Made by a program: the position numbers and the translations under genes. Below are positions 1-3,630 of a stretch of DNA of 3,730 bases, in pieces (the stretch's first letter is position 1; each line of letters starts with the position of its first letter). The DNA is taken from assembly GCA_000004985.1 (NCBI GenBank), contig GG739212.1; one strand, given 5' to 3'. Under the pieces are notes generated by a model, which saw only the letters and a list, made by a program, of their open reading frames with translations, made no database searches and was not told the DNA's origin. This stretch comes from Naegleria gruberi. Taxonomy: Eukaryota.

Positions 1-143
1 CCAATTGTTTACCGGCGTAGATGAGCCTTTGTTGTTCTGGTGGAATTCCTTCCTTATCTTGAACCTTTCTTTTAACATTTTCAATTGAATCGTTCTTCCA
101 ATGTGATAGTTTTACCAGTGAGTGTCTTGACAAATAATTGCAT
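1..143 (-). CDS. Ubiquitin-like protein, N-terminal part only (the gene runs off the window edge). The reading frame appears broken (+1 shift) near 92..95, so this is either a pseudogene or a sequence error.
   Basis: The minus-strand ATG is the reverse complement of 141..143. It translates as [16 protein letters not shown], 15/16 identical to the ubiquitin N-terminus [17 protein letters not shown] different frame, starting at about 94, translates as [31 protein letters not shown], which matches ubiquitin [31 protein letters not shown]. Only 4 nt (GAAC) lie between the Glu16 codon and the Asp21 codon, where ubiquitin has 12 nt. That leaves the two ubiquitin-matching segments out of frame, and the ATG frame reaches a TGA stop at about 81..83. 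Confidence 0.6.
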
Positions 144-555
144 GATTGGTTTGAACTGTTTTTTTCTTATTGTTGAAATTCAAACCTAAATCTTCCCACT
201 ATTTATGTGAATCTGCGGTTTTTGTGTATTTTTAGATAAAAGTTCTAGTTGAGCTTTGAACTAGTTTTGTTTCGCGACACAAATTTTGGAACTTGGGATA
301 TATTGTAATTTAAAAGCACAAAAGGTGAAAATTAGCATGTTAATATCGAATAACTAAATATATAGATTGTATTGCTTTCATATATTAGAACAACACTTTT
401 CACTTTGAGTTTTCTTTAAAATGTTTGTGGGTGTAATTATTGCTGATTATCTTGATATTTACTTGATAAATGTATTCAATTTTTTTACCATATCAACTAG
501 ACATTTTGGAGTGCCTTTTATGGCTTTTATATGTCTTAATAAAAAGAGCTCAAGT

Positions 556-569
556 AAAAAGAGACAAAA
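556..569 (-). terminator. Pol III oligo-T terminator for the tRNA-Leu gene.
   Basis: On the minus strand, directly 3' of the tRNA discriminator, the sequence reads GC-TTTT-GTCTC-TTTTT-A. A further TTTTT follows at 541..545. Confidence 0.6.
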
Positions 570-571
570 GC

Positions 572-652
572 TGCAGAAGGTGGGATTTGAACCCACGAAG
601 CTTGCGCAGTAGAACTTGAGTCTACCCCCTTTGACCACTCGGGAACCCCTGC
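572..652 (-). tRNA. tRNA-Leu, anticodon CAA, type II with a long variable arm and no intron.
   Basis: Reverse complement of 572..652: GCAGGGGTTCCCGAGTGGTCAAAGGGGGTAGACTCAAGTTCTACTGCGCAAGCTTCGTGGGTTCAAATCCCACCTTCTGCA. The 7-bp acceptor stem is GCAGGGG/CTTCTGC with two G-U pairs. The D-arm is CCC-GAGTGGTCAAA-GGG. The anticodon stem is GTAGA/TCTAC with loop CTCAAGT (U33, CAA, G37). There is a 12-nt variable arm with a short GC stem. The T-arm is GTGGG-TTCAAAT-CCCAC (GTTCAAATC consensus). The discriminator is A. Confidence 0.85.
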
Positions 653-684: not shown

Positions 685-1407
685 CTGAAATAAACTAATA
701 ATTCTATTTTCTTAAGTACACAACTACATACAGCTCGGGTAATAATTTTCTATTATTGATAAAAAGTTTAAGGTACCAATCTGCATGTTCACAAATCCCC
801 CATTCACAAACCATGGCTGGTAAGGAATGCAGCAATCATCTATGAACGAGGAAACCTACAGCGAAGCATGTTTCCAGTTCGATATCATGCTCAAGATATG
901 TGACTACAGAGTCTTCATCTTGGTTAACCTCAAAGGTCAGATTGACTCAAAAAAGTCGAGTTTATGTATTCCTACAGAAAAGATCCTGTAGAAGTACAGT
1001 CAATGGTTTTATCAATCTTGCATCCTCAATGATGTTATATTGGTTCTGAAAGTGTAAATTGTTATGAAGAAAAGTTATGGTTAAAAAATTGGGAAAAAAT
1101 TCAATAACAGATTCAAGAATATATTTGAAAGAATAAGGTTACCAGTCTGGCTTTCTTGGTGAATAAAGATGATAATATGAAAGTAAGTCAATTTGTCGAA
1201 GGACCTTCAGTGCAGTATTGGGGTTAGACAAGTGTTGTTCTAAAGATATGACATTTGTCATGGAAATTAACACTTGCTAGGTATGTGGTGAAGCAAATAT
1301 TTGAAGTCTCAAATCCAAAAATTGATCTTTTATTGATCAACCACAAGTATCTCTTTCTAACTAGATAAAATTCAAAGGTGATATATAGATGGTCACGTAG
1401 CAAGCTT

Positions 1408-1865
1408 NNNNNNNNNNNNNNNNNNNNNNNNNNNNNNNNNNNNNNNNNNNNNNNNNNNNNNNNNNNNNNNNNNNNNNNNNNNNNNNNNNNNNNNNNNNNN
1501 NNNNNNNNNNNNNNNNNNNNNNNNNNNNNNNNNNNNNNNNNNNNNNNNNNNNNNNNNNNNNNNNNNNNNNNNNNNNNNNNNNNNNNNNNNNNNNNNNNNN
1601 NNNNNNNNNNNNNNNNNNNNNNNNNNNNNNNNNNNNNNNNNNNNNNNNNNNNNNNNNNNNNNNNNNNNNNNNNNNNNNNNNNNNNNNNNNNNNNNNNNNN
1701 NNNNNNNNNNNNNNNNNNNNNNNNNNNNNNNNNNNNNNNNNNNNNNNNNNNNNNNNNNNNNNNNNNNNNNNNNNNNNNNNNNNNNNNNNNNNNNNNNNNN
1801 NNNNNNNNNNNNNNNNNNNNNNNNNNNNNNNNNNNNNNNNNNNNNNNNNNNNNNNNNNNNNNNNN
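1408..1865. other. Assembly or scaffold gap: 458 consecutive N.
   Basis: Direct observation of the N run. It starts immediately after an AAGCTT (HindIII) site at 1402..1407. ORF-track entries 1224..1916(-), 1378..1893(+) and 1393..1953(-) are poly-X artefacts spanning this gap. Confidence 0.99.
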
Positions 1866-1954
1866 GGAGATCATCTTGGAAATAAATAGATAACTGATCG
1901 GATGATGATATTCCACAACAAAACAAAATAACTAAATAACAAACACTAATCAAA

Positions 1955-2251
1955 ATGCCAGCTAGAAATACTTCTTCAAATACTTCTTCATCTTCCGAAG
2001 ATAGAATTCCAACAAAAACAGTCTGGTCAAGATCTAAACCAATTGATTTAACTAAAAGATTACCATTATTTGATATTGATACTTCAAATATTATAAGTGG
2101 AACCAGACATCGTAATAATATTGATTATCATCATGCAAATTTAAATGGTAAACAAATTTCAGTGAAAAGATCTTCGAAAAATTCAATTGAAAAGAGAGCT
2201 AAACAATCAACCACCACTACTAAGAGGATTACCAAATCGAAAAAGATGTAG
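1955..2251 (+). CDS. Hypothetical small protein of 98 aa. It is basic, Ser/Thr/Lys-rich, probably intrinsically disordered, and has a K/R-rich C-terminus that could act as a nuclear localisation signal. No family assignment was possible.
   Basis: ATG at 1955 lies in the context tcaaaATGc, preceded by an A-rich, G-poor leader. An in-frame TAA sits 18 nt upstream, so this is the first possible start. Codon usage is coherent and yeast-like (AGA Arg, TTA Leu, TCT/TCA Ser, CCA Pro, ACT/ACC Thr). Stop TAG is at 2249..2251, followed by an AT-rich 3' region with AATAAA-like motifs. Sequence: MPARNTSSNTSSSSEDRIPTKTVWSRSKPIDLTKRLPLFDIDTSNIISGTRHRNNIDYHHANLNGKQISVKRSSKNSIEKRAKQSTTTTKRITKSKKM. Confidence 0.55.
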   Translation: MPARNTSSNTSSSSEDRIPTKTVWSRSKPIDLTKRLPLFDIDTSNIISGTRHRNNIDYHHANLNGKQISVKRSSKNSIEKRAKQSTTTTKRITKSKKM

Positions 2252-2450
2252 ACTAATACTTGTAAATTATCCTAAATTTGTAAATAAAAAAAGAAGAGAA
2301 TTAAATATCCAGAAGAATCAGATCTTATTATTGTTCATAAATGAAGTTGCCCTACTGTCCAGAATGTGTTTGAGGCAGTAGTTCAGTTGATTATATAGAA
2401 ACTCTTTTCATTATTGTTGATTGTTTAAGATGTGAAGCATGTTCCAGTAT

Positions 2451-2470
2451 GGGAAGAAGGATAAATTACA
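2451..2470. repeat. Left arm of the 20-bp perfect inverted repeat.
   Basis: gggaagaaggataaattaca, matching the reverse complement of 2971..2990. Confidence 0.9.
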
Positions 2471-2970: not shown

Positions 2971-2990
2971 TGTAATTTATCCTTCTTCCC
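2971..2990. repeat. Right arm of the 20-bp perfect inverted repeat.
   Basis: tgtaatttatccttcttccc, which is the reverse complement of 2451..2470. Confidence 0.9.
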
Positions 2991-3507: not shown

Positions 3508-3625
3508 GGCTACGGCCATATCACGATGAATGCACCTCATCCCGTCCGATTTGAGAAGTTAAGCATCGTCGAGCCACATCAGTACTGAGGTTGGAGACAA
3601 CTTGGGAACCTGTGGTGCTGTAGTC
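3508..3625 (+). rRNA. 5S ribosomal RNA gene, dispersed copy not linked to rDNA within this window.
   Basis: GGCTACGGCCATATCACGATGAATGCACCTCATCCCGTCCGATTTGAGAAGTTAAGCATCGTCGAGCCACATCAGTACTGAGGTTGGAGACAACTTGGGAACCTGTGGTGCTGTAGTC. The conserved 5S blocks are present: 5' GGCUACGGCCAUA, GCACC, CCCGUCCGAU, GUUAAGC, AGUAC (loop E), GGUUGGAGACAAC, UGGGAA, and the 3' GGUGCUGUAG. Helix I forms between GGCUACGGC and GCUGUAGUC. The total length of 118 nt is appropriate. Confidence 0.9.
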
Positions 3626-3630
3626 TTTTT
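3626..3630 (+). terminator. Pol III T5 terminator of the 5S gene.
   Basis: ttttt immediately after the 3' end of the 5S helix I. Confidence 0.7.

Follow-up and report, generated by a model that had tools for sequence, protein, structure and literature searches.

A diverged, unannotated ubiquitin gene copy with a broken reading frame at a scaffold end of a Naegleria gruberi-type genome

At the left end of the window, by which we mean the whole 3,730-nt stretch of DNA that was analysed, lies, as read from its sequence, an additional, unannotated copy of a diverged ubiquitin gene from a genome of the Naegleria gruberi type; the scaffold edge cuts it short and leaves the 5' two-thirds. We consider it probable that this copy is a recently inactivated paralogue, i.e., a ubiquitin-variant gene disabled by a real 8-nt deletion. 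According to this model, a variant copy that is additional to canonical ubiquitin and related to the N. gruberi proteins XP_002669132, P0145 and P0189 would have diverged from ubiquitin while purifying selection still acted, and an 8-nt deletion within the beta2-alpha1 loop (Val17-Ser19) would then have shifted the frame, such that translation from the ATG would end after 20 codons. The frame shift and the early stop suggest that the locus most likely yields no ubiquitin-like protein product.

Reading frames and the lesion of the ubiquitin-like copy

Translation of the reverse complement of 1..143 places the ubiquitin-like gene on the minus strand, which the first-pass annotation had left unstated, with the following features.

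96..143, minus strand: block A, the start codon (143..141) and ubiquitin residues 1-16 (translation; tblastn frame -3)
95, minus strand: frame-break junction, a single G (two matches in different frames; alignment gap of 3 columns)
2..94, minus strand: block B, which covers ubiquitin residues 20-50 and is shifted by +1 from the frame of block A (translation; tblastn frame -1)
81..83, minus strand: TGA stop that closes the starting frame after 20 codons (translation)
144..571, minus strand: non-coding region upstream of the ubiquitin-like copy, extending to where the 3' end of a tRNA-Leu gene begins

Past codon 16, the starting frame reads EERFN and then the TGA at 83..81, and skipping the G at 95, which amounts to a +1 shift, leaves 94..2 open and free of stops to the window edge. 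Block B comprises 31 residues and is truncated by that edge, where the gene leaves the window at codon 50/51. The interval from the Glu16 codon to the Asp21 codon is 4 nt here (G plus AAC) and 12 nt in ubiquitin, and the single G at 95 stands in place of the 9 nt for Val17-Glu18-Ser19 that are found in ubiquitin and in the N. gruberi paralogue. Searching the whole window by tblastn with human and yeast ubiquitin gave exactly two HSPs and no other notable match: one covers 143..96 (frame -3) and the other 94..2 (frame -1), with a joint E of 4e-17. The first-pass annotation had described a diverged ubiquitin-like copy in two blocks of different frame with a net loss of 8 nt between Glu16 and Asp21, and each of these statements is borne out by the tblastn frames and by our count on the sequence; the eight substitutions it listed (I3L, S20N, T22S, D24E, S28R, I30V, D39E, F45Y) are exactly all of the differences from yeast ubiquitin.

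When the 47 residues of the two blocks were joined, they matched profile positions 1-48 of 72 in Pfam PF00240 with 54.7 bits (E 8.9e-15), against a curated cut-off of 25.4 bits. By these scores, the ubiquitin homology of the two blocks is far beyond chance. One continuous ORF for a complete beta-grasp domain is absent, as the coding sequence is divided between two frames with a stop at 20 codons, and the window edge cuts the domain at residue 50, before the place where ubiquitin has the LRLRGG diglycine end that serves its activation and conjugation. In the visible part, K6, K11, K27, K29, K33 and K48 are all kept. Two other accounts of the frame change were rejected. An intron does not fit, because sequence is missing rather than extra and no GT...AG pair fits the homology. 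A +1 frameshift at the TGA stop would give the product TLEERFNENVK, in which the conserved D21 and I23 are lost, whereas the frame starting at 94 gives an exact NDSIENVK match.

We infer that the genome really carries this deletion and that it inactivates the gene. The 48 nt before and the 93 nt after the junction consist of ubiquitin-like codons without a flaw, and these continue to the final scaffold base; this suggests that local sequence quality is good, unlike that of a low-quality read tail. An 8-nt loss is also atypical of Sanger base-calling errors, which are usually 1-nt indels. Furthermore, Val17, which is removed together with the rest of Val17-Ser19, is a buried core residue of strand beta2 in the ubiquitin structure. 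These same observations weigh on a somewhat unlikely alternative, which the first-pass annotation had raised as a sequencing or assembly indel. Here the ubiquitin-variant gene would be intact and expressed at the real locus, and the draft alone would show the 8-nt loss, as the product of a single read or of a deletion during plasmid cloning. The junction, given as ...TTGGAAGAACGATTC... within window positions 60..130, would in that case read TTGGAAGTNGAATCNAACGAT at the true locus. In its favor, the scaffold, which is 3,730 nt long and contains a gap of 458 N, ends 95 nt from the break, where coverage may come from a single read or a single clone, and the source is a Sanger draft of 1,977 scaffolds (PMC9928731). 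The size of the loss and the perfect codons that flank it to the last base nevertheless argue against a region of generally low quality.

A second alternative, which we regard as very unlikely, is that the copy encodes a functional ubiquitin variant with a beta2-alpha1 loop that is 3 residues shorter. Such a product would require either an in-frame deletion of 9 nt plus the erroneous insertion of one base, the G at 95, or else programmed +1 frameshifting of the ribosome at GAA-GAA-CGA. A +1 shift anywhere in codons 16-18 would restore a continuous ubiquitin-like product, single-base errors are the commonest Sanger indels, and the annotated Oikopleura protein P0001 carries a 3-residue deletion in the same loop. 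However, P0001 is the only one of 246 retrieved relatives with that deletion, the normal 3-residue spacer separates the two blocks in every top match, and the full 150 nt are spanned in all 80 giant-virus loci listed (of 569). The junction also has no slippery site, stop codon or known stimulator, a buried core residue would be lost with Val17, and this route calls for two events instead of one or for an unsupported mechanism.

Divergence, selection and relatives in N. gruberi

Across the 47 visible residues, the copy differs from yeast ubiquitin at eight positions and from human ubiquitin at seven, which corresponds to 39-40/47 identities with the canonical protein. By tblastn, block A is 94% identical to ubiquitin and block B 77-81%. 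If ubiquitin proper is defined as departing from the human or yeast sequence at no more than about 3-4 positions, the 7-8 differences in 47 visible residues place the copy outside the near-invariance of that protein. For the canonical polyubiquitin of Naegleria (N. fowleri, PDB 5VIX), an identity of 96% with human ubiquitin is reported (PMC7990177), which suggests that the window copy is a side copy and not the working ubiquitin.

All eight substitutions are conservative, with a mean BLOSUM62 score of +1.63. As a null model, we introduced random point mutations into the same coding DNA until eight residues differed, in 20,000 runs. The simulated mean was -0.47 +/- 0.65, the observed value was reached in 0.05% of runs, and a stop codon was gained in 43% of them. 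By this comparison, the visible coding sequence is one that evolved under purifying selection, as judged with the low power that only 47 codons afford. The restriction to conservative changes suggests that the copy diverged under selection and that the frame was broken only recently, if the break is real at all. The indel aside, nothing points to relaxed constraint, which counts against inactivation, and the lack of any decay apart from the 8-nt loss suggests that any inactivation was recent. The earlier proposal of a decaying pseudogene can thus be kept in part: a pseudogene is the best fit to a broken frame, but decay is not seen beyond the 8-nt loss, since the substitutions are conservative and both blocks are free of stops. 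Conservative changes with no stops are likewise what a live gene would be expected to show, as an error confined to the draft would entail.

The comparison with ubiquitin, NEDD8 and Rub1 proposed in the first-pass annotation was carried out by tblastn and found the copy closest to ubiquitin in both blocks. Its residues had been described as sitting between ubiquitin and NEDD8, which the data do not support: the two blocks are 77-81% and 94% identical to ubiquitin (81% and 94% for the human protein), the corresponding values being 63% and 56% for NEDD8 and 50% and 75% for Rub1, and thus the copy is not more similar to NEDD8 than to ubiquitin. We find it hardly credible that the gene encodes NEDD8/Rub1 or, as had also been suggested, an N-terminal UBL domain that belongs to a larger, multidomain protein. 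The window does not reach the C-terminus, which leaves room for an extension. However, the copy starts with Met1-Gln2 and shows 77-94% identity to ubiquitin, whereas UBL domains in larger proteins are much more divergent, and its N. gruberi relatives are 76-aa or di-ubiquitin-like proteins with RGG at the end.

A protein search with the joined 47 residues against ~5.8 billion proteins, including the N. gruberi proteome, gave 3,515 ubiquitin-family matches. An intact near-identical protein (>42/47) was found nowhere in that set, which argues against an intact gene hidden by a draft error. Among the tied best matches is N. gruberi XP_002669132 / EFC36388 (NAEGRDRAFT_44880), an intact 76-aa 'predicted protein' with an RGG end; the existence of such a paralogue is in turn a point for the draft-error reading. 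XP_002669132 comes from the same organism, is identical at 42/47 positions, and shares with the window copy L3, N20, S22, E24, R28 and V30 as well as an exact 16-mer. It differs in having Val17-Glu18-Ser19 and the RGG end and in carrying R11, S37, D39, F45 and G46, whereas the window copy carries the 8-nt loss and is cut off at the scaffold end. At three of these five substituted positions, the window copy holds the canonical ubiquitin residue (K11, P37, A46). By tblastn, block B is 87% identical to XP_002669132, and the best match to the N-terminal 34 residues of the window copy is this N. gruberi paralogue. The N. gruberi paralogue shares its score of 42/47 with some metagenomic ubiquitins of giant viruses and with other variants.

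A further protein search for Naegleria orthologues, with P0115 as the query, returned mostly polyubiquitin and two more N. gruberi models, P0145 (129 aa) and P0189 (115 aa). Both are di-ubiquitin-like, with first units of the XP_002669132 type and second units that have an 11-residue stretch, including Tyr45, in common with the window copy. Both also lack stretches of the ubiquitin fold; in P0189, Leu43 of unit 1 is joined to RGG and unit 2 lacks residues 24-30. These gaps suggest that the gene models splice around lesions, in which case the same genome would contain other degenerate copies. We count the degenerate appearance of these sibling loci in favor of a real deletion in the window copy. 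All six derived residues of the N. gruberi variants (L3, N20, S22, E24, R28, V30) are present in the window copy, and we group it with the Naegleria variants by the motifs they have in common and by the genome they come from rather than by a phylogeny.

Searches further afield added little. The literature, queried with the peptide string and for Naegleria ubiquitin variants, contained nothing specific, and a degenerate-pattern scan of JGI metagenome contigs (L3 plus an NDSIENVK-type motif, any loop length) recovered one unrelated locus with a loop of normal length. That locus, on contig Ga0180438_10006279 (7152..7232, minus strand), encodes 36 residues of an L3-type ubiquitin variant and then leaves the frame at a TAA, which may reflect an intron or a variant genetic code. 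Exact-protein look-up of the CHZ ORF described below, two other window ORFs, P0115, P0121, P0124 and P0145 gave none on record.

Genomic context of the window

Beyond the ubiquitin-like copy, the window contains the following features.

572..652, minus strand: tRNA-Leu(CAA) (Rfam/ARAGORN)
775..1003, minus strand: full-length U3 snoRNA (Rfam/ARAGORN)
1408..1865: 458-N scaffold gap, with contigs of 1,407 and 1,865 nt on either side
1955..2251, plus strand: ORF of 98 aa with a CHZ histone-chaperone motif, the only substantial ORF (motif search)
2187..2381, plus strand: out-of-frame ORF downstream of the CHZ ORF stop (matches the tail of EFC42156)
2451..2470 and 2971..2990: perfect inverted repeat, GGGAAGAAGGATAAATTACA / TGTAATTTATCCTTCTTCCC, of two 20-nt arms separated by 500 nt
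3508..3626, plus strand: 5S rRNA (Rfam/ARAGORN)

The tRNA-Leu(CAA), U3 and 5S genes and two protein genes are thus packed within 3.7 kb. U3 lies 122 nt upstream of tRNA-Leu on the same strand, and the 3' end of U3 is followed after ~10 nt by a T5 run (762..766, AAAAA on the plus strand), which could represent Pol III-type termination, as in plants and trypanosomatids; the 5S gene is likewise followed by T5. The inverted repeat is MITE-like, with no long ORF in its interior, and the two long 'ORFs' listed across 1408..1865 are artefacts of the N run.

The window has a GC content of ~33%, and the Sanger assembly of N. gruberi one of 35% (PMC9928731); this composition and the small, N-gapped scaffold fit the Sanger draft. 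The CHZ ORF is 88-90% identical to two N. gruberi 'predicted proteins', EFC35829 (on an 11.9-kb scaffold) and EFC42156 (on a 380-kb scaffold), and from this protein identity we take the source of the window to be N. gruberi or a very near relative. Because the C-terminal tail of EFC42156 matches the out-of-frame ORF at 2187..2381, the duplicated segment extends beyond the CHZ coding region into flanking DNA, and the EFC42156 gene model probably reads through a frame change. The presence of at least two CHZ paralogues together with duplicated flanking DNA indicates that the window belongs to a multi-copy segment. A 661-bp contig from an ENA metagenome (ERZ929261 k127_327985) carries a CHZ gene with ~93% DNA identity to window 1866..2290 and does not extend as far as the ubiquitin-like gene; its match points to a close Naegleria relative in the environmental sample, or to a paralogue there.

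These neighbors also bear on whether the copy could be a giant-virus-derived ubiquitin gene integrated into the amoeba genome, an origin that we judge most improbable. Metagenomic giant-virus ubiquitins P0018 and P0019 share N20, S22, V30, E39 and Y45 with the window copy and have an exact 15-residue match to it. However, these positions are commonly variable ones of ubiquitin, and in a scan of giant-virus contigs, in which 569 loci encode relatives, the best locus was 86% identical, no closer than cellular variants, and none of the 80 listed had the short loop. Furthermore, the genes around the copy are cellular housekeeping ones (tRNA-Leu, U3, 5S and a CHZ protein gene that has paralogues in N. 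gruberi), and the best match to its N-terminal 34 residues is the N. gruberi paralogue.

Significance and comparison with known ubiquitin systems

The finding by itself is ordinary and of little consequence: the small group of N. gruberi variants gains one more member, unannotated and probably dead, and a possible scaffold-end error is flagged. Its setting is that Naegleria has several ubiquitin-like copies that have drifted by 10-17% from an almost invariant protein through conservative changes only. An unlikely extension is that Naegleria keeps and expresses lineage-specific ubiquitin variants of the L3/N20/S22/E24/R28/V30 type and that the window copy is itself live, with a break that is either a draft error or bypassed, possibly to give a shorter beta2-alpha1 loop. 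If this were true, the expressed variants could form a conjugation signal distinct from that of canonical ubiquitin. Variant copies that are expressed and conjugated would offer a natural example of variant ubiquitins, a prospect that concerns the intact paralogues and not the window fragment.

Canonical ubiquitin (polyubiquitin, Ub-eL40, Ub-eS31) belongs to the same PF00240 fold family as the window copy and has the same kind of start, but the window copy differs from it by seven or eight conservative substitutions and by its broken frame. NEDD8/Rub1 shares the ubiquitin fold and the Tyr45-type 'QQRLIY.GKQ' motif, yet the window copy has none of the NEDD8 signature residues, e.g., Lys4, Glu12, Glu14 and Ile15-Asp16. 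Other eukaryotes also carry extra diverged ubiquitin copies beside invariant genes, some of them with indels, such as the UBB/UBC-derived pseudogenes of humans and the ubiquitin-like polyubiquitin genes of Arabidopsis. The copies in Naegleria resemble these in kind, and ubiquitin itself is the extent of their direct homology.
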